A stretch of DNA of 14,408 nucleotides from a virus (Duplodnaviria; Heunggongvirae; Uroviricota; Caudoviricetes): IMG/VR virus record IMGVR_UViG_2606217117_000008, one strand, 5' to 3'. Made by a program: the position numbers and the translations under genes. Below are positions 1 to 14,408 of the stretch, one piece after another (within the stretch, counting starts at the first letter, position 1; each line of letters starts with the position of its first letter). The notes beneath the pieces were generated by a model that saw only the letters and a program-made list of their open reading frames with translations, was not told where the DNA came from and searched no databases.

Positions 1-93
1 ACTCAGTTGCTGGTCTTTCTGACGGAGGGCTTCAGCCTGCTCAGAGAGCAACCTTTCCAGCTCTGCGATGCGAATGAGGTATTTCTGACTCAT
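1..93 (-). CDS. tnpC: IS66-family transposase TnpC, N-terminal 31 codons only (gene runs off the left edge)
   Basis: Reverse complement of 1-93 reads MSQKYLIRIAELERLLSEQAEALRQKDQQLS: an ATG ~30 nt downstream of the tnpB stop followed by a coiled-coil/leucine-zipper-like segment, as expected for an IS66 transposase N-terminus. Fragment is short, hence moderate confidence. Confidence 0.55.
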   Translation of the reverse strand, partial: MSQKYLIRIAELERLLSEQAEALRQKDQQLS

Positions 94-123
94 GACCGTT
101 TTTATAATGCGGTCAGGAGTTTT

Positions 124-474
124 TTACAACATTGTCAGTGAGTTACGGCTGGATGTTTTTGGCTGACGCCAGTCCAGCTTATCGAGGAGCATTGCCAGTT
201 GCGAGCGGGTAATGGATACCTTGCCGTCACGTACCGCAGGCCAGATAAACTGGCCTTCCTCCAGGCGTTTGGTGAACAGGCACAGACCATCAGCATCAGC
301 CCAAAGAATTTTGACGGTGTCACCCCGTCGGCCACGGAAGATAAACAGGTGACCGGAGAAGGGATTATCATTCAGCACATGTTGTACCTGTTCTCCCAGT
401 CCGTTGAAGGATTTACGCATATCGGTAACGCCGGCAACGAGCCAGATACGGGTACCTGATGGGAGTGAGATCAT
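124..474 (-). CDS. tnpB: IS66-family accessory protein TnpB (orfB), 116 aa
   Basis: ORF-track protein MISLPSGTRIWLVAGVTDMRKSFNGL…LFIFRGRRGDTVKILWADADGLCLFTKRLEEGQFIWP carries the characteristic IS66 Orf2 motifs. Confidence 0.9.
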   Translation of the reverse strand: MISLPSGTRIWLVAGVTDMRKSFNGLGEQVQHVLNDNPFSGHLFIFRGRRGDTVKILWADADGLCLFTKRLEEGQFIWPAVRDGKVSITRSQLAMLLDKLDWRQPKTSSRNSLTML

Positions 475-896
475 CTTCCCCTCCCGGTCAGTTCACGGAT
501 CAACACTGTGAGCAGCTCTGGCGATGGATTTTCCAGCGTCATGTTACCGTGACGGAATTCCACCTTGCAGGAACTGGCACTGACTCTGGTCTGAGTGGAA
601 GTGGATAAAGACGGCGCAATGGCCGCCACAGGTTCTTTCTGCTCATCCGGCGTTATTTCTACAGGTAATAATTCAACGCCAGTGTCAGAAGAGGTCGTTA
701 CCGGAAGACGCCGCGAAACACGCCCTTCGTTCTGCCAGAGCCTGAGCCATTTGAAAATAACATTATCATTGACGCCATTTTCACGTGCAATCTGTGCAAC
801 ACAAGCTCCAGGTTGTGATGCCAGTTCCACCATACGAAGTTTGAATTCATTCGAATAGTTTTTACGAGGTTCTTTTCGCCAGTCCTGTAATTCCAT
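471..896 (-). CDS. tnpA: IS66-family accessory protein TnpA (orfA), 141 aa
   Basis: ORF-track protein. Size, a helix-turn-helix-like segment (…CVAQIARENGVNDNVIFKWLRLWQ…) and position upstream of and overlapping tnpB fit IS66 orfA. Confidence 0.8.
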   Translation of the reverse strand: MELQDWRKEPRKNYSNEFKLRMVELASQPGACVAQIARENGVNDNVIFKWLRLWQNEGRVSRRLPVTTSSDTGVELLPVEITPDEQKEPVAAIAPSLSTSTQTRVSASSCKVEFRHGNMTLENPSPELLTVLIRELTGRGR

Positions 897-1750
897 ACTT
901 AGATGTCCGTCTATATCAGATGGGCGTCTAAGTTACCAATTCTCGTCTGATGGCTACATACGGCGGTCAGTTTACGCTTACGCAGGTACAGCTTGATGCT
1001 CCCGGAATGCTGGCTGAAACGGACGAGTACATGGCCGGAGGTAAACGACCGGCCCGTGTTTACCGGGTGGTGAACGGTATTGCTGTACTGCCGGTGACCG
1101 GCACGCTGGTGCACCGGCTGGGCGGTATGCGGCCATTTTCCGGAATGACAGGCTATGACGGCATTGTCGCCTGTCTTCAGCAGGCAATGGCAGATAGCCA
1201 GGTGCGGGGCGTACTGCTGGACATTGACAGTCCGGGCGGGCAGGCCGCCGGCGCGTTTGACTGCGCTGACATGATTTACCGCCTCCGTCAGCAGAAGCCG
1301 GTCTGGGCACTGTGCAATGACACGGCCTGTTCTGCAGCCATGCTGCTGGCGTCGGCCTGCTCCCGACGGCTGGTTACCCAGACATCCCGTATCGGCTCCA
1401 TTGGCGTGATGATGAGCCATGTCAGCTATGCCGGTCATCTGGCGCAGGCCGGGGTGGATATCACGCTGATTTATGCCGGGGCGCACAAGGTGGATGGCAA
1501 TCAGTTTGAAGCCTTACCGGCAGAGGTGCGTCAGGACATGCAGCAGCGGGTTGATGCGGCGCACCGGATGTTTGCCGAAAAAGTGGCGATGTATACGGGG
1601 CTGTCTGTGGAAGCTGTCACGGGGACAGAGGCTGCCGTTTTTGAAGGTCAGTCCGCTATTAAGGCCGGACTGGCGGATGAATTAATCAATGCGTCGGATG
1701 CCATCAGCGTGATGGCTGCGGCGCTGAACACTCATGATACAGGAGGCACT

Positions 1751-2353
1751 ATGCCGCAATTAACTGCAACGGAAGCTGCCGCGCAGGAGAACCAGCGAGT
1801 GATGGGGATCCTGACGTGTCAGGAAGCGAAAGGACGTGAACAGCTTGCCACGATGCTGGCAGGACAACAGGGCATGAGCATTGAACAGGCCCGGGCGATT
1901 CTGGCCGCGGCGGCACCACAGCAGCCGGTGGCATCCGCGCAGAGTGAAGCCGATCGCATTATGGCGTGTGAAGAAGCGAAAGGTCGTGAACAACTGGCGG
2001 CAACGCTGGCGGCGATGCCGGAGATGACGGTGGAAAAAGCCCGCCCGATCCTGGCTGCCTCACCGCAGGCGAATGCCGGGCCCTCACTTCGTGATCAGAT
2101 CATGGCCCTGGATGAGGCAAAAGGGGCAGAAGCGCAGGCTGAAAAACTGGCGGCCTGCCCGGGAATGACCGTGGAGAACGCCCGGGCTGTGCTGGCTGCG
2201 GGATCAGGTAAGGCCGAACCGGTCTCTGCATCCACAACCGCCTTGTTTGAACATTTCATGGCGAATCATTCACCGGCAGCGGTGCGGGGTGGCGTGTCAC
2301 AGACGTCAGCAGACGGTGATGCGGACGTGAAAATGCTCATGGCCATGCCATGA
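1751..2353 (+). CDS. nu3: Scaffold protein Nu3-like, from an in-frame internal start within C (200 aa)
   Basis: AGGAGG at 1741-1746 sits 4 nt upstream of the in-frame ATG at 1751. Lambda Nu3 is likewise made from an internal in-frame start in C, and the product contains the conserved IMGIL…EAKGRE…PGMTV…AR.ILAA scaffold motif. Confidence 0.5.
   Translation: MPQLTATEAAAQENQRVMGILTCQEAKGREQLATMLAGQQGMSIEQARAILAAAAPQQPVASAQSEADRIMACEEAKGREQLAATLAAMPEMTVEKARPILAASPQANAGPSLRDQIMALDEAKGAEAQAEKLAACPGMTVENARAVLAAGSGKAEPVSASTTALFEHFMANHSPAAVRGGVSQTSADGDADVKMLMAMP
1787..2209 (+). repeat. Three tandem copies of a ~141-156 nt (42-46 aa) unit inside the C/Nu3 scaffold-coding region
   Basis: Protein units (R/D)xIM(G/A)(I/C/L)…EAKG(R/A)E…LA…P(G/E)MTVE(K/N)ARxILAA begin at about nt 1787, 1943 and 2084. 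DNA similarity is visible, e.g. gaagcgaaaggacgtgaacagcttgcc (~1823) versus gaagcgaaaggtcgtgaacaactggcg (~1972). Confidence 0.6.
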
Positions 2354-2389: not shown

Positions 2390-2737
2390 ATGGTGACGAA
2401 AACCATCACTGAACAGCGTGCGGAAGTACGTATTTTTGCCGGTAATGATCCGGCTCATACCGCCACAGGCAGCAGCGGGATTTCTTCTGCAACACCGGCT
2501 CTGACGCCCCTGATGCTGGATGAAGCCACCGGGAAACTGGTGGTCTGGGATGGACAGAAAGCCGGTAGTGCGGTTGGCATACTGGTACTGCCGCTTGAAG
2601 GCACAGAGACGGTGCTGACCTATTACAAGTCGGGGACCTTTGCGACGGAGGCAATCCGCTGGCCTGACAGTGTGGATGAACACAAAAAGGCAAATGCCTT
2701 TGCCGGCACAGCCCTGAGTCACGCGGCTCTGCCGTAA
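2390..2737 (+). CDS. D: Head decoration protein D, 115 aa
   Basis: Matches lambda gpD (…NDPAHTAT…LTPLMLD…GKLVVWDG…AVGILV…YKSGTF…AFAGTA…). Located between C and E as in lambda. Confidence 0.9.
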   Translation: MVTKTITEQRAEVRIFAGNDPAHTATGSSGISSATPALTPLMLDEATGKLVVWDGQKAGSAVGILVLPLEGTETVLTYYKSGTFATEAIRWPDSVDEHKKANAFAGTALSHAALP

Positions 2738-2794: not shown

Positions 2795-3823
2795 ATGGGA
2801 TTGTTTACGACCCGCCAGTTACTCGGTTATACCGAACAAAAAGTGAAATTCCGTGCGCTGTTTCTGGAGCTGTTTTTCCGCCGTACGGTGAATTTCCACA
2901 CCGAAGAGGTGATGCTGGACAAAATTACCGGAAAAACGCCGGTGGCGGCCTATGTCTCCCCGATCGTTGAAGGAAAAGTGCTTCGCCATCGCGGTGGTGA
3001 AACCCGCGTGTTACGTCCGGGCTACGTCAAGCCCAAACACGAATTTAATTACCAGCAGGCGGTTGAGCGCCTTCCTGGTGAAGATCCGGCTCAGCTGAAC
3101 GACCCGGCCTACCGTCGTCTGCGTATCATTACCGATAACCTCAAACAGGAAGAGCACGCCATTGTCCAGGTGGAAGAAATGCAGGCGGTGAATGCCGTGC
3201 TGTATGGCAAATACACCATGGAAGGGGATCAGTTTGATACTGTCGAGGTGGATTTCGGGCGCTCTGAAGGAAATAACATTGAGCAGGCTGACGGTAAAAA
3301 ATGGTCTGAGCAGGACCGTGATACGTTTGATCCGACGCATGATATTGACCTCTACTGCGATCAGGCCAGCGGCCTTGTGAATATCGCCATTATGGACGGT
3401 ACGGTCTGGCGTCTGCTGAATGGCTTTAAGCTGTTCCGCGAAAAACTGGATACCCGTCGCGGCTCAAATTCACAACTCGAAACGGCAGTGAAAGACCTGG
3501 GGGCGGTGGTGTCCTTCAAGGGGTATTACGGCGATCTGGCCATTGTGGTGGCGAAAACGTCTTATGTGGCAGAGGACGGTACCGAAAAACGTTATCTGCC
3601 GGAGGGCATGCTGGTGCTGGGGAATACGGCGGCAGAGGGGATTCGTTGCTATGGTGCCATTAAGGATGCACAGGCGTTGTCTGAAGGAGTGGTGGCTTCT
3701 TCCCGTTACCCGAAACACTGGCTGACCGTGGGCGATCCGTCCTGTGAATTCACCATGACGCAGTCCGCTCCGCTGATGGTGCTGCCGGATCCGGATGAGT
3801 TTGTGGTGGTACAGGTGAAATAA
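2795..3823 (+). CDS. E: Major capsid protein E, 342 aa
   Basis: Strong similarity to lambda gpE along the whole length (…YVSPIV.G.V.R.RGG…PGYVKPKHE…KLDTRRGSNS.LETAVKDLG…TMTQSAPLMVLPDPDEFVVVQ). Confidence 0.95.
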   Translation: MGLFTTRQLLGYTEQKVKFRALFLELFFRRTVNFHTEEVMLDKITGKTPVAAYVSPIVEGKVLRHRGGETRVLRPGYVKPKHEFNYQQAVERLPGEDPAQLNDPAYRRLRIITDNLKQEEHAIVQVEEMQAVNAVLYGKYTMEGDQFDTVEVDFGRSEGNNIEQADGKKWSEQDRDTFDPTHDIDLYCDQASGLVNIAIMDGTVWRLLNGFKLFREKLDTRRGSNSQLETAVKDLGAVVSFKGYYGDLAIVVAKTSYVAEDGTEKRYLPEGMLVLGNTAAEGIRCYGAIKDAQALSEGVVASSRYPKHWLTVGDPSCEFTMTQSAPLMVLPDPDEFVVVQVK

Positions 3824-4249: not shown

Positions 4250-4603
4250 ATGCGTGATTTTCAGAATGCCTTTGATGCTGCCCTCGCCGGGGTAGACAGT
4301 ACGATCGTTGAAGTGATGGGGCTCTGTGCGCAGTTCACCTCGGGGGCACAGTGTGGCAGCGAAGTTCAGGGGGTTTTTGACGATCCGGAGTCGCTGGGGT
4401 TTGCCGGTGGCGGGGTCCGTATTGAAGGAAGCAGCCCGTCATTATTTGTGCGGACGGATACGGTTCGTGCCGTGCGGCGTGGTGACACGCTGACCATTAA
4501 TGGTGAGATATTCTGGGTGGATCGTGTTTCTCCGGATGACGGGGGCAGCTGTTATCTCTGGCTCAACCGTGGTCAACCACCCGCAGTTAACCGGCGACGA
4601 TAA
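4250..4603 (+). CDS. FII: Head-tail joining protein FII, 117 aa
   Basis: Near-colinear match to lambda gpFII (…GVFDDPE…GVR.EGSSPSLFVRTD.VR..RRGDTLTI…FWVDRVSPDDGGSC.LWL.RG.PPAVNRRR). Confidence 0.9.
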   Translation: MRDFQNAFDAALAGVDSTIVEVMGLCAQFTSGAQCGSEVQGVFDDPESLGFAGGGVRIEGSSPSLFVRTDTVRAVRRGDTLTINGEIFWVDRVSPDDGGSCYLWLNRGQPPAVNRRR

Positions 4604-4618
4604 ACGCAGGGTGAAATT

Positions 4619-5152
4619 ATGGCGATAAAAGGGCTTGATCAGGCGATTGATAATCTGAGCCGGGTTCGTAAAAACGCCATTCCGGCGGCTTCAGCAATGA
4701 CGATTAACCGCGTGGCCACAACGGCGATTAATCAGTCTTCATCACAGGTTGCCCGGGAGACAAAGGTACGCCGGAAACTGGTTAAGGAACGGTCCAGACT
4801 GAAACGGGCGACGGTCAGAAATCCGAATGCCAAAATTATCGTTAACCGCGGTGATCTCCCTGTGATTAAGCTGGGGATCAGAATGCTGGGGCGTCGCCCG
4901 AACAGCATACTTAAAGCCGGTCAGCATCGGTATCAGCGGGCATTTATTCAGCGATTAAAAAATGGTCGCTGGCATGTCATGCAGCGTGTGGCCGGGAAAA
5001 ACCGTTACCCCATTCAGGTGGTGAAAATCCCGATGGCGGCCCCACTGAAACAGGCATTTGATGAGAATGTTGACCGTATCCGGCGTGAACGCCTGCCTAA
5101 AGAACTGGCATACGCGCTGAAACAACAACTGAGGATTGCGATAAAACGATGA
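4619..5152 (+). CDS. Z: Tail completion protein Z, 177 aa
   Basis: Matches lambda gpZ at both ends (MAIKGL.QA..NLSR…SQVARETKVRRKLVKER.RLKRATV.NP…NGRWHVMQRVAGKNRYPI.VVKIPMA…ERIRRERLPKEL.YAL..QLR..IKR). Confidence 0.9.
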   Translation: MAIKGLDQAIDNLSRVRKNAIPAASAMTINRVATTAINQSSSQVARETKVRRKLVKERSRLKRATVRNPNAKIIVNRGDLPVIKLGIRMLGRRPNSILKAGQHRYQRAFIQRLKNGRWHVMQRVAGKNRYPIQVVKIPMAAPLKQAFDENVDRIRRERLPKELAYALKQQLRIAIKR

Positions 5153-5544
5153 AACACACTGACATTCGTGCCGCAGTGCTGGATGCACTCGAGCAGCATG
5201 AACACGGGGCGACGCTGTTTGATGGTCGCCCCGTTGTTTTTGACGAAGAGGATTTTCCTGCGATCGCGGTTTATCTGACGGATGCAGAGTATACCGGTGA
5301 AGAGCTGGATGCAGATACCTGGCGGGCCACGCTGCATATTGAGGTGTTTTTACCGGCACAGGTACCGGATTCAGAGCTTGATCAGTGGATGGAAAGCCGG
5401 ATTTACCCGGCGATGACCGCGATCCCGGCACTGGCAGGACTGATTACCACGATGGTTACGCAGGGCTATGAGTATCGTCGTGATGACGATATGGCGTTAT
5501 GGAGTTCTGCAGATCTGACTTATTCCATTACATACGAGATGTGA
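5149..5544 (+). CDS. U: Tail terminator protein U, 131 aa
   Basis: Very high similarity to lambda gpU (MKHT.?[69 protein letters not shown]…). Start overlaps the Z stop (ATGA). Confidence 0.95.
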
Positions 5545-5551
5545 GGACGAT

Positions 5552-6208
5552 ATGGCAACACCAAATCCCCTTGAGCCGGTAAAAGGTGCCGGTACCACTC
5601 TGTGGGTTTACAACGGCAAGGCTGATGCTTATGCAAACCCGTTGTCAGACGATGACTGGCAGCGACTGGCTAAGGTGAAGGATCTGACGCCGGGCGAGAT
5701 GACGGCAGAACCCTACGATGATAACTACCTGGATGATGAAGACGCGGACTGGACCGCGACCGGGCAGGGACAGAAATCTGCAGGTGATACCAGTTTTACG
5801 CTGGCCTGGAAACCGGGAGAGGAAGGCCAGAAAGGGCTTATAGGCTGGTTTGAAAGCGGCGATGTCCGGGCCTATAAAATCCGTTTTCCGAATGGCACGG
5901 TGGATGTGTTTCGTGGCTGGGTCAGCAGTATCGGTAAGGCCGTGACGGCGAAAGAAGTGATCACCCGCACGGTGAAAGTCACTAACGTGGGTAAACCTTC
6001 TGTAGCGGAAGAACGCAGCAAAATTACGCCGGTCACTGCGATTAAGGTAACGCCGACAGGTACGGTGGAAAAAGGGAAAACAACCACCCTGACGGTTTCT
6101 TTTGAGCCGGAAAGTGCAACCGACAAGACGTTCAGAGCGGTTTCCGCCGATCCGTCGAAAGCCACCATTAGTGTGAAAGATATGACAATTACGGTAAACG
6201 GGGGTTAA
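5552..6208 (+). CDS. V: Major tail protein V, 218 aa in frame; the last ~31 codons of the lambda-like C-terminus continue in the +1 frame (6204..6299)
   Basis: Matches lambda gpV (…[13 protein letters not shown]…[55 protein letters not shown]…[41 protein letters not shown]…). The frame ends at TITVNGG* after a GGGGG run at 6200-6204. Confidence 0.9.
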
Positions 6209-6299
6209 GGATGGAAAAGTCAGCATCCCTGTGATTTCCGGTAATGGTCAGTTTGCTGCGGTGGCTGAAATTACCGTTAATAATGTGCCGGGTGGCTAA
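6204..6299 (+). other. V: Out-of-frame C-terminal remnant of V ([31 protein letters not shown]), matching lambda …[31 protein letters not shown]
   Basis: Translating the +1 frame from 6204 gives a segment colinear with the lambda gpV C-terminal Ig-like tail. Removing one G from the G5 run at 6200-6204 restores a continuous ~249-aa V. Confidence 0.7.
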
Positions 6300-6317
6300 A
6301 GAGCTGAGAGATAAGCG

Positions 6318-6749
6318 ATGTTCCTGAAAACAGAACAATTTGAATATAACGGTGTGTCCGTCACGCTTTCTGAGCTGTCTGCGCTGCAGCGTATTGAGCA
6401 TCTTGCCCTCCTGAAACGGCGGGCAGAAGAGGCTGAAGCCAGCGGCAACCTGCAGGTGAGTGTGGAAGATCTTGTCAGAACCGGCGCGTTTCTGGTGGCG
6501 ATGTCCCTGTGGCATAACCATCCACAGAAAACGCAGTCACCGTCAATGAATGAGGCCGTGATGAAGATAGAGCAGGAAGTGCTCACCACCTGGCCTGCAG
6601 ATGCCATTGCCCGGGCGGAAGACGTGGTGTTGTGCCTGTCCGGGATGATCGAAGCTGTTCGTCCGGATACTGATATTACTGAAGTGGCGAAAAATAACAC
6701 GCTGACTGATGATGATTTTTCTGCGGGAAAGTCTTCGACGGCGAGCTGA
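6318..6749 (+). CDS. G: Tail assembly chaperone G, 143 aa
   Basis: Matches lambda gpG (MFLKTE.FE.NGV.VTLSELSALQRIEHLAL.KR.AE.AE…GAFLVAMSLWHNHPQKTQ.PSMNEAV..IEQEVLTTWP…SAGK.ST.S*). Confidence 0.9.
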   Translation: MFLKTEQFEYNGVSVTLSELSALQRIEHLALLKRRAEEAEASGNLQVSVEDLVRTGAFLVAMSLWHNHPQKTQSPSMNEAVMKIEQEVLTTWPADAIARAEDVVLCLSGMIEAVRPDTDITEVAKNNTLTDDDFSAGKSSTAS

Positions 6750-7189
6750 ACTTTGCCCTCAGACTGGCGCGTGAGATGGGGAGACCCGACTGGCGCGCCA
6801 TGCTTGCCGGGATGACATCCACCGAATATGCCGACTGGCACCGTTTTTACCGCACGCATTATTTTCAGGATACCCAGCTGGATATGCATTTTTCCGGGCT
6901 GACGTACGCTGTACTCAGCCTGTTTTTTTGCGATCCGGATATGCATCCCTCTGATTTCAGTCTGCTTGTCCCCCGGCATGAGGAAGAGCAGGTGGAGAGG
7001 CCGGATGAGGACAAAATGCTGATGCAGAAAGCGGCAGGACTTGCCGGAGGCGTCCGGTTCGGTGGGGACGGAGGGCGCGATATTTTATCGTCTGCGGATG
7101 TGGCGGATGTCATGGTGGATGATGCCGCATTAATGATGGCTTCAGCGGGGATTCCGGGAGGTGTGAGATATGTCCCAGCCGGTTGGTGA
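6318..7189 (+). CDS. T: Tail assembly protein G-T, made by a programmed -1 ribosomal frameshift at GGGAAAG (6725-6731) joining G to the T frame
   Basis: The T-frame ORF (…MGRPDWRAMLAGMTSTEYADWHRFYRTHYF.D..LDMHFSGLTYAVLSLFF.DPDMHP.DFSLL…) matches lambda gpT and has no start of its own. It is open back to the slippery heptamer G GGA AAG near the 3' end of G, exactly as in lambda. Confidence 0.85.
6725..6731 (+). promoter_or_regulatory. Slippery heptamer GGGAAAG for the G/G-T programmed -1 translational frameshift
   Basis: Sequence GCG GGA AAG TCT… in the G frame. The -1 frame from this point reads …KVFDGELNFALRLAREMGRPDWRAML…, colinear with lambda gpT. Confidence 0.8.
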
Positions 7190-9722
7190 TCTTGTTATTG
7201 ACCTTAGTCTGGATGCTGTCCGTTTCGATGAGCAGATGAGCCGGGTAAGGCGTCATTTTTCAGGTCTGGATACCGACGCCAGAAAAACCGCCAGTGCTGT
7301 TGAACAGGGCCTGAGCCGCCAGGCGCTGGCTGCACAAAAAGCCGGGATTTCCGTCGGGCAGTATAAAGCGGCCATGCGAACCCTGCCCGCACAGTTTACG
7401 GATATCGCCACGCAGCTTGCCGGTGGTCAGAATCCCTGGCTCATCCTGCTGCAACAGGGCGGTCAGGTGAAGGACTCCTTCGGCGGGATGATCCCCATGT
7501 TCAGGGGGCTTGCCGGTGCGATCACCCTGCCGATGGTCGGGGTCACCTCGCTGGCGGTGGCGACAGGTGCGCTGGTGTACGCCTGGTACCAGGGAGATTC
7601 CACGCTTTCAGCGTTTAATAAAACCCTGGTTCTTTCCGGTAATCAGTCCGGACTGACTGCCGATCGTATGCTGACTCTCTCAAGAGCCGGGCAGGCAGCA
7701 GGGCTGACGTTTAACCAGGCGAGAGAGTCACTGGCAGCCCTGGTGAATGCCGGTGTGCGTGGTGGTGAACAGTTTGATGCCATCAACCAGAGTGTCGCGC
7801 GTTTTGCGTCTGCATCCGGTGTGGAGGTGGATAAAGTCGCTGAAGCCTTCGGGAAGCTGACCACTGACCCGACGTCGGGACTGATGGCGATGGCGCGCCA
7901 GTTCCGTAACGTGACGGCAGAGCAGATTGCGTATGTTGCACAGCTGCAGCGTTCCGGAGACGAGGCCGGGGCATTGCAGGCGGCGAACGATATCGCCACG
8001 AAAGGCTTTGATGAGCAGACCCGTCGCCTGAAAGAAAACATGGGAACACTGGAGACCTGGGCGGATAAAACAGGGAAGGCATTCAAATCGATGTGGGATG
8101 CCATTCTGGATATCGGTCGTCCTGAATCCTCAGCGGATATGCTCGCCAGTGCGCAGAAGGCATTTGATGAGGCGGATAAAAAATGGCAGTGGTACCAGAG
8201 CCGGAGCCAGCGCCGGGGAAAGACCTCCTCTTTTCGTGCGAACCTTCAGGGGGCATGGGATGACCGGGAAAATGCCCGTCTGGGTCTGGCAGCGGCCACG
8301 CTGCAGTCGGATATGGAAAAAGCCGGTGAACTGGCGGCAAGGGACCGGGCTGAGCGTGAGGCGTCACAGCTGAAGTATACCGGAGAGGCGCAGAAGGCGT
8401 ATGAGCGCCTGCAGACGCCGCTGGATAAATATACCGCCCGTCAGAAAGAGCTGAATAAGGCCCTGAAAGACGGAAAAATCCTGCAGGCGGATTACAACAC
8501 GCTGATGGCGTCGGCAAAAAAGGATTATGAATCGACGCTGAAAAAGCCGTCAGGTGTGAAGGTGTCTGCCGGTGAGCGCCAGGAAGACCGGGCGCATGCA
8601 GCCATGCTGGCGCTTGAAACCGAGCTCAGGACGCTGGAAAAACACAGCGGTGTGAATGAGAAAATCAGCCAGCAGCGCCGGGATTTATGGGAAGCGGAAA
8701 ATCAGTATGTGGTCCTGAAAGAGGCCGCCACGAAACGGCAGTTATCTGAGCAGGAAAAATCCCTGCTGGCCCATGAGAAAGAAACGCTGGAGTACAAACG
8801 CCAGCTGGCTGAGCTGGGCGACAAGATAGAACACCAGAAGCGGCTGAATGAGCTGGCACAGCAGGCGGCGCGGTTTGAGCAGCAGCAGAGCGCAAAAGCC
8901 CGCGGCCTCACTGACCGTCAGGCGCAGCGGGAGTCGGAAGAGCAGCGCCTTCGTGAGGTGTACGGTGATAATCCGGCTGCGCTGGCGAAGGCCACATCGG
9001 CACTGAAGAACACCTGGTCTGCGGAGGAGCAGCTTCGTGGAAGCTGGATGGCCGGGATGAAGTCCGGCTGGGGCGAGTGGGCGGAAAGTGCGACGGACAG
9101 TTTTTCGCAGGTTAAAAACGCGGCCACGCAGACCTTTGACGGTATTGCACAGAATATGGCGGCGATGCTGACCGGCAGTGAGCAGAACTGGCGTGGTTTC
9201 ACCCGTTCCGTGCTCTCCATGCTGACAGAGATTTTTCTGAAGCAGGCAATGGTGGGGATTGTCGGAAGTATCGGCAGCGCCATTGGCGGGGCTGTTGGTG
9301 GGGGCGCATCCGCGTCAGGCGGTACAGCCATTCAGGCAGCTGCGGCGAAATTCCATTTTGCGACCGGAGGATTTACGGGAACCGGCGGCAAATATGAACC
9401 TGCGGGGATTGTTCATCGCGGGGAGTTTGTCTTCACGAAGGAGGCGACCAGCCGGATTGGTGTCGGCAATCTGTACCGCCTGATGCGGGGCTATGCGGAA
9501 GGTGGTTATGTCGGCGGTGCCGGAAGTCCGGCGCAGATGCGGCGGGCGGGAGGCATTAATTTTAATCAGAACAATCACGTGGTGATTCAGAACGACGGCC
9601 CCAACGGGCGGGCAGGGCCGCAGCTGATGAAAGCGGTGTATGAGATGGCCCGCAAGGGGGCACAGGATGAACTCCGGCTGCAGTTGCGTGATGGCGGTAT
9701 GTTATCAGGGAGCGGTGGATGA
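7170..9722 (+). CDS. H: Tail tape measure protein H, 850 aa
   Basis: Extensive match to lambda gpH across the length (MS.PVGDLV.DLSLDA.RFDEQM.RVRRHFSG… GISVGQYKAAMR.LPAQFTD…GGMIPMFRGLAGAITLPMVG… C-terminal GGASASGGTAIQAAAAKFHFATGGFTGTGGKYEPAGIVHRGEFVFTKEATSRIGVGNLYRLMRGYA). Start overlaps the end of T. Confidence 0.95.
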   Translation: MSQPVGDLVIDLSLDAVRFDEQMSRVRRHFSGLDTDARKTASAVEQGLSRQALAAQKAGISVGQYKAAMRTLPAQFTDIATQLAGGQNPWLILLQQGGQVKDSFGGMIPMFRGLAGAITLPMVGVTSLAVATGALVYAWYQGDSTLSAFNKTLVLSGNQSGLTADRMLTLSRAGQAAGLTFNQARESLAALVNAGVRGGEQFDAINQSVARFASASGVEVDKVAEAFGKLTTDPTSGLMAMARQFRNVTAEQIAYVAQLQRSGDEAGALQAANDIATKGFDEQTRRLKENMGTLETWADKTGKAFKSMWDAILDIGRPESSADMLASAQKAFDEADKKWQWYQSRSQRRGKTSSFRANLQGAWDDRENARLGLAAATLQSDMEKAGELAARDRAEREASQLKYTGEAQKAYERLQTPLDKYTARQKELNKALKDGKILQADYNTLMASAKKDYESTLKKPSGVKVSAGERQEDRAHAAMLALETELRTLEKHSGVNEKISQQRRDLWEAENQYVVLKEAATKRQLSEQEKSLLAHEKETLEYKRQLAELGDKIEHQKRLNELAQQAARFEQQQSAKARGLTDRQAQRESEEQRLREVYGDNPAALAKATSALKNTWSAEEQLRGSWMAGMKSGWGEWAESATDSFSQVKNAATQTFDGIAQNMAAMLTGSEQNWRGFTRSVLSMLTEIFLKQAMVGIVGSIGSAIGGAVGGGASASGGTAIQAAAAKFHFATGGFTGTGGKYEPAGIVHRGEFVFTKEATSRIGVGNLYRLMRGYAEGGYVGGAGSPAQMRRAGGINFNQNNHVVIQNDGPNGRAGPQLMKAVYEMARKGAQDELRLQLRDGGMLSGSGG

Positions 9723-12085: not shown

Positions 12086-12123
12086 AAAAAAATCCCGCAG
12101 TGATCGCGGACAGGAACTGCGGG
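12086..12123 (-). terminator. Hairpin plus U7 tract acting as an intrinsic terminator for - strand transcription
   Basis: Stem CCCGCAG/CTGCGGG (12094-12100 with 12117-12123) and a 16-nt loop. On the - strand it is followed by A then TTTTTTT (12092..12086). On the + strand no T-tract follows, so the signal is specific to the - strand. Confidence 0.4.
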
Positions 12124-12182
12124 AGAGTTACGAAGATTAAGTGTAAGGAATTATTCTTATATCACGACAAAAAAATTAACGC
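12086..12182 (-). ncRNA. Candidate ~95-nt small RNA on the - strand in the I-J intergenic insert (prediction only)
   Basis: On the - strand: -35 TTCACA (12216..12211), 16-bp spacer, -10 TATAAT (12194..12189), predicted start ~12182. About 55 nt of AU-rich sequence is followed by a hairpin (CCCGCAG, 16-nt loop, CTGCGGG; 12123..12094) and A+UUUUUUU (12093..12086). No plausible ORF in the transcript. Confidence 0.3.
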
Positions 12183-12188
12183 AGAGAA

Positions 12189-12216
12189 ATTATACGCGCC
12201 ACAGTCAGTTTGTGAA
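12189..12216 (-). promoter_or_regulatory. Near-consensus sigma70 promoter on the - strand (TTCACA, 16 bp, TATAAT), transcribing away from J toward I
   Basis: + strand attata at 12189-12194 is TATAAT on the - strand; + strand tgtgaa at 12211-12216 is TTCACA on the - strand. 16-bp spacer, in an AT-rich intergenic insert. Confidence 0.45.
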
Positions 12217-12287
12217 AATGTGAAGATATTCAGAATTTTTATGCCATTACCGGTTTTAACCAACAGGATTATCGGTGGGCATGAAAG

Positions 12288-12324
12288 AAAACCCCGGTAT
12301 CTGCTGATACCGGGGTTTCTCTTT
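12288..12324. terminator. Strong perfect hairpin (AAACCCCGGTATC tgct GATACCGGGGTTT) flanked by U-rich tracts on both strands; possible bidirectional terminator
   Basis: 13-bp perfect inverted repeat with a 4-nt loop. The + strand follows it with TTTCTCTTT and the - strand with TTTTCTTTC. Lies inside the AT-rich I-J insert, ~100 bp upstream of the J start. Confidence 0.45.
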
Positions 12325-12421
12325 AGCATGGCAGAAATGTGTTTCATGCTTTTCGGGCGAAGGATATCCGACTTCTGTACGGAATGGCAAGTGGCGGTTA
12401 ATTTATTCAGGGGAAGGCTGT

Positions 12422-14408
12422 ATGGGAAAAGGTGGCGGTAAGGCACACACGCCTCGTGAGGCGAAGGATAATCTCAAATCCACGCAGATGATGAGTGTGA
12501 TTGATGCGATTGGTGAGGGACCGATAGAAGGCCCGGTGAAGGGACTGCAGAGTATCCTGGTGAACAAAACCCCGCTGACGGACACGGACGGTAATCCCGT
12601 GATACACGGTGTGACCGCGGTCTGGCGTGCCGGGGAGCAGGAGCAGACACCACCGGAAGGCTTTGAGTCCTCCGGAGCTGAAACCGGACTGGGCGTGGAA
12701 GTGACGAAGGCAAAACCGGTGACGCGCACCATTACGTCCGCGAACATTGACCGCCTGCGGGTTACCTTCGGGGTGCAGTCACTGGTGGAGACCACCTCAA
12801 AGGGTGACCGTAACCCGGCATCCGTCCGCCTGCTGATTCAGTTACAGCGTAACGGTAACTGGGTGACAGAAAAGGACGTCACCATTAACGGCAAGACCAC
12901 CTCACAGTTCCTGGCCTCGGTGATTCTGGATAATCTGCCTCCCCGGCCCTTTAACATCCGGATGGTCAGGGAGACGGCGGACAGCACCACGGACCAGCTG
13001 CAGAATAAGACGCTGTGGTCGTCATACACCGAAATCATCGATGTGAAACAGTGCTACCCGAACACGGCCATTGTGGGGCTGCAGGTGGATGCGGAGCAGT
13101 TCGGCGGCCAGCAGATGACGGTGAACTACCATATCCGCGGTCGCATCATCCAGGTGCCGTCAAACTATGACCCGGAAAAACGCACGTACAGTGGTATCTG
13201 GGACGGCAGCCTGAAACCGGCATACAGCAACAACCCGGCCTGGTGTCTGTGGGACATGCTGACTCACCCGCGCTACGGCATGGGAAAACGTCTGGGGGCG
13301 GCGGATGTGGACAAGTGGGCGCTGTATGCCATCGGGCAGTACTGCGACCAGACGGTCCCGGATGGTTTCGGGGGGACCGAGCCGCGGATGACCTTTAATG
13401 CGTACCTGGCACAACAGCGTAAGGCGTGGGACGTTCTCAGTGATTTCTGCTCGGCGATGCGCTGTATGCCGGTATGGAACGGCCAGACGCTGACGTTCGT
13501 TCAGGACCGTCCGTCGGATGTGGTGTGGCCGTACACCAACAGCGATGTGGTGGTGGATGATAACGGCGTGGGGTTCCGCTACAGCTTCAGTGCCCTGAAG
13601 GACCGGCACACGGCGGTGGAGGTGAATTACACCGACCCGCAGAACGGCTGGCAGACCTCCACGGAACTGGTGGAAGACCCGGAAGCCATACTGCGCTACG
13701 GACGCAACCTGCTGAAGATGGACGCGTTCGGCTGTACCAGCCGCGGTCAGGCCCACCGTGCCGGACTGTGGGTGATAAAGACCGAACTGCTGGAAACGCA
13801 GACGGTGGATTTCACGCTCGGGTCTCAGGGGCTGCGGCACACACCCGGTGACATCATTGAAATCTGTGATAACGACTATGCCGGGACCCTGACCGGCGGA
13901 CGTGTCCTGTCCATTGATGCTGCCACCCGCACCCTGACGCTGGACCGTGAAGTGACACTTCCGGAGACCGGTGCCGCCACGGTGAACCTGATTAACGGCA
14001 GCGGTAAGCCGGTGAGTGTGGACATCACCGAACACCCCGCGCCGGACCGGATACAGGTCAGTACCCTGCCTGATGGTGTGGAGACATACGGGGTGTGGGG
14101 ACTCTCCCTGCCGTCACTGCGCCGTCGCCTGTTCCGCTGTGTCTCCGTCCGGGAAAACACGGACGGCACCTTTGCCATCACGGCGGTGCAGCACGTACCG
14201 GAAAAAGAAGCCATCGTGGATAACGGTGCCCGCTTTGAGCCGCAGTCAGGTTCCCTGAACAGCGTCATCCCACCGGCAGTGCAGCACCTGACGGTGGAGG
14301 TGAGCGCAGCTGACGGACAGTATCTGGCGCAGGCGAAATGGGACACGCCGCGGGTGGTGAAGGGTGTGCGCTTCAGTCTGCGCCTGACCAGTGGTAAGGG
14401 AACGGATG
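12422..14408 (+). CDS. J: Tail tip/host-specificity protein J, N-terminal ~662 codons (gene continues past the right edge)
   Basis: ATG at 12422 preceded by GGGGAAGG. MGKGGGKAHTPREAKDNLKSTQMMSVIDAIGEGPIEGPV… and downstream segments (…WSSYTEIIDVKQCYPNTA…SNNPAWCLWDMLTHPRYGMGKRLGAADVDKWALY…DAFGCTSRGQAHRAGLW.IKTELLETQTVDF…) are colinear with lambda gpJ. No stop before 14408. Confidence 0.95.
   Translation, partial: MGKGGGKAHTPREAKDNLKSTQMMSVIDAIGEGPIEGPVKGLQSILVNKTPLTDTDGNPVIHGVTAVWRAGEQEQTPPEGFESSGAETGLGVEVTKAKPVTRTITSANIDRLRVTFGVQSLVETTSKGDRNPASVRLLIQLQRNGNWVTEKDVTINGKTTSQFLASVILDNLPPRPFNIRMVRETADSTTDQLQNKTLWSSYTEIIDVKQCYPNTAIVGLQVDAEQFGGQQMTVNYHIRGRIIQVPSNYDPEKRTYSGIWDGSLKPAYSNNPAWCLWDMLTHPRYGMGKRLGAADVDKWALYAIGQYCDQTVPDGFGGTEPRMTFNAYLAQQRKAWDVLSDFCSAMRCMPVWNGQTLTFVQDRPSDVVWPYTNSDVVVDDNGVGFRYSFSALKDRHTAVEVNYTDPQNGWQTSTELVEDPEAILRYGRNLLKMDAFGCTSRGQAHRAGLWVIKTELLETQTVDFTLGSQGLRHTPGDIIEICDNDYAGTLTGGRVLSIDAATRTLTLDREVTLPETGAATVNLINGSGKPVSVDITEHPAPDRIQVSTLPDGVETYGVWGLSLPSLRRRLFRCVSVRENTDGTFAITAVQHVPEKEAIVDNGARFEPQSGSLNSVIPPAVQHLTVEVSAADGQYLAQAKWDTPRVVKGVRFSLRLTSGKGTD

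Follow-up and report, generated by a model that had tools for sequence, protein, structure and literature searches.

Positions 1787-2209 of the window encode three tandem, mutually homologous units of ~40 amino acids each, which lie in the scaffold part of a phage 21-type prohead protease gene. By the window we mean the whole stretch of 14,408 nucleotides analysed here (IMG/VR record IMGVR_UViG_2606217117_000008). This repeat is the triplication annotated as the Tri boxes of Escherichia phage 21, and so was already known. It is a protein-level triplication of a conserved scaffold-domain module that is common to the protease and to the scaffold protein nested in it. The triplication is an ancient duplication kept under protein-level selection, neither a recent expansion nor a DNA-level element. 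We consider its identity and age to be close to certain. The features of this region are as follows.

982..2353, plus strand: 5'-truncated homologue of phage 21 gene 5 and lambda C (S49 prohead protease and scaffold domain; PF01343)
1741..1746, plus strand: Shine-Dalgarno sequence AGGAGG of the nested scaffold gene, read from the sequence
1751..2353, plus strand: nested in-frame scaffold gene, 200 aa, analogue of phage 21 gene 6 and lambda Nu3
1787-1921, plus strand: unit 1, amino acids 13-57 of the Nu3-like protein, ENQRVMGILTCQEAKGREQLATMLAGQQGMSIEQARAILAAAA
1946-2065, plus strand: unit 2, amino acids 66-105 of the Nu3-like protein, EADRIMACEEAKGREQLAATLAAMPEMTVEKARPILAASP
2087-2209, plus strand: unit 3, amino acids 113-153 of the Nu3-like protein, LRDQIMALDEAKGAEAQAEKLAACPGMTVENARAVLAAGSG
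2210..2350, plus strand: C-terminal tail of the scaffold, amino acids 154-200 (...STTALFEHFMANHSPAAV...DADVKMLMAMP)

The plus-strand ORF at 950..2353 encodes 467 amino acids, an S49 peptidase domain first and then a C-terminal part rich in alanine. The Pfam model PF01343 (Peptidase_S49) matched residues 112-259 of this ORF (E 3.8e-36; 124.8 bits against a cut-off of 24.9), and the domain sits in the N-terminal two thirds of the protein, as in the lambda C/Nu3-type family. From 982 onwards the protein is 100% identical to the S49 family peptidase WP_001253979.1 of E. coli VR50. Intact relatives of the protease have 501 amino acids and a portal gene upstream. On the portal side of the window an IS66-family element is present at 1-981 instead of the portal gene:

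1..981, minus strand: end of an IS66-family insertion sequence (ISEc23-like; Megablast, terminal inverted repeat ending at 981)
124..474, minus strand: tnpB of the insertion sequence, inside the IS66-family element
471..896, minus strand: tnpA of the insertion sequence, inside the IS66-family element

In Megablast searches, positions 1-981 matched ISEc23, copies of which occur in thousands of E. coli records, with 99.8% identity. The terminal inverted repeat, ...acggcggtcagtttacgcttac, terminates at 981, and we take this end to be the reverse complement of the GTAAGCG... end of the IS66 type. The first position with homology to phage 21 and E. coli prophages is 982. The ATG at 950 and the first 11 codons of the 467-aa ORF derive from the terminal repeat of the insertion sequence. 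As homology runs only from 982, the intact gene has 501 codons' worth of protein and the ATG at 950 lies within the insertion sequence, the 467-aa ORF is an IS/protease chimera, in which the 5' part of the protease gene has been lost to the IS66-family element. With ~45 N-terminal codons gone, the reading frame of the protease is incomplete; the nested scaffold gene is complete. Because the protease gene is disrupted by this element, the prophage copy in the window is probably defective for head assembly. The junction between the insertion sequence and the protease gene (981/982; window 860-1100) was absent from the 5426 complete E. coli genomes searched. For the annotation of the window, this truncation is a more useful practical point than the triplication.

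Downstream of the protease/scaffold gene, the head and tail genes follow:

2390..2737: head-decoration gene, D-like (phrog_49)
2795..3823: major capsid gene, E-like, 61% identity to lambda E
7170..9722: tape measure gene

The E-like capsid protein is an unremarkable homologue of lambda E and equals it in length. The gene order 3' of the capsid gene is lambda-like, with an FI-like gene, tail genes including the major tail protein, and an I-like gene. Within 12100-14408, a J-like tail-tip gene (99.5% identity to E. coli prophage gpJ genes) runs past the 3' end of the window; the minus-strand ORFs of the same stretch are without family matches and are probably spurious.

The three units were predicted to lie within the part of the protein expressed as Nu3 from an internal start at 1751, and this is upheld. 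The ATG at 1751 and the AGGAGG at 1741-1746 coincide with the annotated start and ribosome-binding site of gene 6 in the phage 21 records, and the ATG aligns with Met309 of lambda C. Read from the sequence, this in-frame internal start would give a separate scaffold protein with a C-terminus in common with the protease. The nested protein aligns with phage 21 gp6 without a gap, and 190 of its 200 residues are the same; the equivalent product in OL657228.1 is annotated as scaffolding protein. Profile searches assigned the 200-aa protein to phrog_53 (4e-78) and matched phrog_8399, 'head scaffolding protein', in three stretches. No Pfam or NCBIfam model covered the scaffold part in searches of these two collections. 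We also observed that the annotations of the nested gene in lambda and in phage 21 are not equivalent. RefSeq NC_001416 gives lambda nu3 from 5132, with 201 aa (833..1438 of the 4300-7200 segment that we used, L004). The lambda start equivalent to that of phage 21 gene 6, and to 1751 in the window, is C Met309, and its product would have 131 aa.

We then compared the units with one another. BLOSUM62 local scores of the unit pairs were 81-105, compared to 24-26 ± 5 for composition-preserving shuffles, and none of the 2000 shuffles scored as high. These scores, 12-17 standard deviations above the shuffles, bear out the claim of three motif copies here against one in lambda, as does the lambda C/Nu3 sequence itself, which contains a single unit, ENSRIMGILNCEEAHGREEQARVLAETPGMTVKTARRILAAAPQ. 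Each unit alone matched equal positions of four PHROG profiles, namely phrog_8399 (~49-93), phrog_8940 (~119-163), phrog_17040 (~20-65) and phrog_16406 (~515-560), with E values from 7e-4 to 2e-14, and the whole 200-aa protein matched these four profiles in three stretches. The unit consensus of the family, ERxRIxxIL..EEAKGRE.LA..LA...xMSVE.AK.ILAAAP, is followed by a tail of ~50 aa, and it is present here as three units and the tail. The tail (amino acids 154-200) has homologues in lambda and most family members, where it comes after their single unit.

The unit was also matched by the portal-protein profile phrog_21 (~894-982 of 1362), which suggests that portal-protease-scaffold fusions bearing the unit exist in some phages. 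Long N-terminal extensions ahead of the protease were observed in P0095 (844 aa) and in P0230 and P0233 (613 and 640 aa).

The repetition is less evident at the DNA level. Units 1 and 2 match over 97 nt at 70% identity with a spacing of 150 nt, and this match is the sole direct repeat of at least 40 nt in the whole window. Unit 3 is offset from unit 2 by 141 nt, with an identity of 59-66% over a 102-nt core. Tandem Repeats Finder, run on 1500-2500, reported no array covering the units, as the DNA copies are too diverged. The DNA repetition expected at ~150 nt is therefore only partly borne out.

Phage records contain the same gene. By megablast, the protease/scaffold gene is 95.8% identical in nucleotides to that of phage 21 (M81255.1, OL657228.1), and 17 other full-length E. 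coli phage records showed 92.9-95.8% identity. M81255.1 ('Bacteriophage 21 head gene operon') is attributed to the sequence analysis of the phage 21 prohead genes by Smith and Feiss (Gene, 1993). Gene 6 of this record is marked with three features of the type repeat_region, which are called 'Tri1 box', 'Tri box' and 'Tri3 box' and annotated as 'function unknown; putative'. Transferred to the window with an offset of -519, the Tri1 box falls at 1818-1921, overlapping unit 1; the second Tri box at 1958-2068, overlapping unit 2; and the Tri3 box at 2099-2212, overlapping unit 3. In phage 21 genes 5 and 6 (head-tail preconnector and protease-scaffold) the gene, the nested start and the positions of the three units are equal to those in the window, and the D-like (shp) and E-like genes come next in both. 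The window differs from phage 21 by ten amino-acid substitutions in the 200-aa scaffold protein, and by the IS66-family element that stands in place of the first ~45 codons of gene 5 and everything upstream. The novelty implied by the original prediction therefore does not hold: apart from the Tri boxes of M81255.1, the triplication is present in about a third of the complete E. coli genomes. Its value as a discovery is accordingly low, having been recorded decades ago in the GenBank entry of the phage 21 head operon.

To see how far the triplication extends, we counted units in near relatives and in the wider family. Of 5426 complete E. coli genomes, 1865 contained at least 80% of the 603-nt nested gene, for the most part with 95-99% identity. 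A near-identical protease defined 85 near-relative loci (80 from IMG/VR and 5 from GTDB genomes, including E. albertii, Shigella flexneri and Trabulsiella guamensis), and 81 of these carry three units. For the wider family, the protease and scaffold were searched against 1.84 billion representatives, which gave 32,474 matches. An iterated unit profile was applied to the best 150 of these matches, 128 of them full length. Among these 128 full-length representatives one unit was found in 104, no detectable unit in 23, and three units in P0090 only. The usual family architecture is a protease, a linker, one unit and a tail (median 52 aa, with a recurring ALD.xM motif). The family census rests on this representative search and on the loci, as the search for homologous proteins gave mostly partial proteins; a scan of genome contigs with a single-protein query gave 6 loci and reaches close relatives only. 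The original prediction had itself raised the alternative that three copies are simply the family norm. This is right for near relatives and wrong for the wider family: given 81 three-unit loci among the 85 near relatives against 104 one-unit proteins among the 128 representatives, three copies are normal in the phage 21 lineage and not in the wider S49 protease-scaffold family.

The age of the triplication was assessed from the codons and from a tree of the units. In the unit cores (34 codons), any two units differ at 18-21 third positions, compared to 6-11 first and second ones; residues identical between units are encoded by different codons in about half of the cases, and synonymous sites are close to saturation. 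In the neighbour-joining tree, the second units of E. coli and Salmonella group together, the third units group together with Trabulsiella included, and the first units group with the lambda-type single units. The near-saturated third positions, and the orthology of units of equal rank across genera, indicate that the triplication is old.

Variants in unit number do occur among the relatives. The contig encoding P0022 (L091, GCA_053199985.1; 1357 bp, one assembly) has an exact in-register deletion of 150 nt, with a shared GCCCG at the junction, which fuses unit 1 to unit 2 and leaves two units. In L083 and in P0009 and P0010, 19 residues are missing inside unit 2 (the L083 deletion is in-frame), P0013 lacks most of unit 2, and two IMG/VR loci (L027, L063) have frameshift truncations within the repeat region. 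A further protein, P0089 (382 aa, 96% identical), is without the stretch from the end of the protease to unit 2. Four units are present in P0029 (locus L092, 1-1043 of a GCA_032727965.1 contig), which belongs to another type of E. coli lambda-like prophage. The order there is likewise S49 protease, units and tail, then D-like, E-like (342 aa) and FI genes, and its first unit is orthologous to ours; the differences are the number of units and an identity of only 48% to our protein over the scaffold part. Tandem Repeats Finder detected the L092 units as an array of 138-nt period with 3.7 copies and 77% matches, and its units 2-4 group together in the unit tree. As units 2-4 are more alike, with 77% matches at the 138-nt period, the four-unit array of L092 looks like a separate, younger expansion. 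These rare copy-number variants show that the unit array can still recombine.

We predicted the structure of the scaffold protein with AlphaFold; the models were of moderate confidence overall (pLDDT 63-69). From the single sequence, each unit was modelled as a pair of a long and a short helix (pLDDT 63.5). With an alignment of 21 sequences, each unit became compact, with three short helices at pLDDT 74-80, the linkers stayed below pLDDT 65, and the pTM was 0.27. The first helix of units 2 and 3 is three residues shorter than that of unit 1. The expectation that the units are helical agrees with these predicted modules. Considering the pTM and the low linker scores, the models fit independent helical modules on flexible linkers, predicted to be without a fixed mutual arrangement. 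A sequence search of the PDB gave no match to the unit region at E<=1, and Foldseek against the PDB gave none at E<=0.001, the best hit (E=1.0) being unrelated; the tandem three-helix repeats R2R3 of c-Myb (E=5.5 in the same Foldseek search) were treated as noise. The only Foldseek matches in BFVD, all at E>0.1, were the C-terminal single units of other phage S49 proteases, with rmsd 1.5-2.0 Å over 59 columns.

Among known systems, lambda gpC/gpNu3 is another close counterpart. Both have homologous S49 proteases (54% identity) and a nested in-frame scaffold gene, and the unit motif, the C-terminal tail and the neighbouring genes D and E are all common to the two. Lambda differs in having one unit instead of three, and a linker between protease and unit that is 34 aa longer. 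The scaffolds P22 gp8, staphylococcal 80alpha gp46 and T7 gp9 carry single helix-turn-helix coat-binding domains at their extreme C-terminus. They resemble the present protein in having small helical modules in an otherwise flexible scaffold, which makes an analogy of mechanism plausible; here, in contrast, the units are internal and repeated, and are followed by the tail of ~47 aa. No similarity to a solved P22-type coat-binding domain was detected at the PDB thresholds given above (sequence E<=1, Foldseek E<=0.001). Going by the title of a 2011 paper by Medina et al., lambda Nu3 is said to be intrinsically disordered in solution. The reported interaction partners of lambda Nu3 are E, C, B and Nu3 itself (PMC3224144).

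These Nu3 interactions, and the observation that no other stretch of the scaffold region is as well conserved in the family as the unit, led us to take the units as interaction modules. Two extra units stand between the ancestral one and the conserved C-terminal tail. Each unit would fold alone as a small helical module, with flexible linkers rich in Ala, Pro and Gln between them. The modules would link scaffold molecules to one another, attach them to the inner side of the E-like capsid protein, or both, and, as the protease has its C-terminus in common with the scaffold, they would also carry the protease into the procapsid. With three units the gp6 chain would be multivalent; lambda Nu3, which reportedly forms dimers, has one unit and a longer linker that is disordered. 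Once assembly is complete, the scaffold would be degraded by the S49 protease. We regard this account, taken as a whole with the identity and age of the module, as likely to be right. For its mechanistic part, that the units form the multivalent interaction module of the scaffold, the case is evenly balanced. Against it we count the moderate confidence of the models, the failure to find a PDB match in sequence or fold at the thresholds used, and the disorder ascribed to lambda Nu3.

The main competing explanation is that the units are spacers, setting length or providing substrate segments for the S49 protease, and that the conserved tail binds the capsid; in a variant of it, with the tail as the capsid binder, the units would serve self-association or spacing only. 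The tail after the units is indeed conserved in length and motif throughout the family, and between lambda and the window protein, and the 34 extra residues of the lambda linker partly compensate for total length. In phi29 gp7 and P22 gp8, moreover, capsid contact is made at the extreme C-terminus, which we count in favour of this explanation. We nevertheless consider it unlikely, given that the EAxGRE, LA..LA and GMT/S columns are invariant or nearly so in 21 homologues and that exactly one unit occurs in 104 of the 128 representatives, a constraint that exceeds the needs of a spacer; the unit is also predicted to be folded and not disordered. A different view of the repeat, and the one to which the original prediction inclined, is that of a young and unstable in-frame expansion, a recombination hotspot with its copy number in flux and an altered scaffold:capsid stoichiometry. 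The copy-number variants of near relatives speak for it: the in-register deletion between units 1 and 2 with its GCCCG junction in one contig, the partial deletions of unit 2 (L083, P0009/P0010, P0013), and the four-unit protein with its 138-nt array. Occasional in-register change, as in the 150-nt deletion and the four-unit type, is thus the part of that view that stands. A recent expansion is improbable and already largely refuted by the pattern of divergence, as the DNA of the units is only 59-69% identical, third positions are nearly saturated, Tandem Repeats Finder is blind to the units, and rank-specific orthology extends across genera. The near relatives have moreover kept their three units in all but four loci, the segment found in 1865 E. 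coli genomes spans all 603 nt in 19 of 20 sampled matches, and the capsid protein has the size of lambda E and 61% identity to it.

The two remaining explanations concern whether there is a protein repeat at all. A DNA-level cis element, made of repeated protein-binding sites (for CII, for example) or of a regulatory RNA structure, could be read from OL657228.1, which annotates two opposite-strand 'CII binding sites' (TTGYN6TTGY) corresponding to 1756-1769 and 1990-2003 on the minus strand of the window. However, this pattern occurs 2 times in the window when 2.15 are expected by chance, the two sites are out of register with the units, and what is conserved from unit to unit tracks the codon structure, the third positions being free to vary. 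No promoter-like sites were found in 1600-2450. The minus-strand ORFs 1749..1934 and 1760..1993 were discounted, as the divergence of the units follows the plus-strand codon phase. We reject a cis element as very improbable. Still less credible is a chance resemblance of non-homologous segments in an Ala-rich, low-complexity helical region. Richness in Ala, Glu and Gln does inflate similarity scores, but the shuffles, which preserve composition, fall far below the observed values, the independent profile matches occur at identical profile positions, and all three units of P0090 are recovered at ~1e-14 or better by a profile made from relatives with one unit. Chance resemblance is therefore refuted.

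The number of units (one in lambda, two in the rare deletion variants, three in the phage 21 type and four in the L092 type) might act as a tunable valency, a suggestion that we make tentatively and think rather unlikely. Were it true, valency could alter the number of capsid subunits engaged per scaffold chain, and with it the kinetics or fidelity with which T=7 procapsids assemble and take up the protease; naturally occurring scaffolds with one to four units, together with their homologous capsid proteins, would then lend themselves directly to studies of the part that scaffold valency plays in assembly. The one-to-four unit series, found beside homologous T=7 capsid proteins, gives simple genetic access to scaffold valency.
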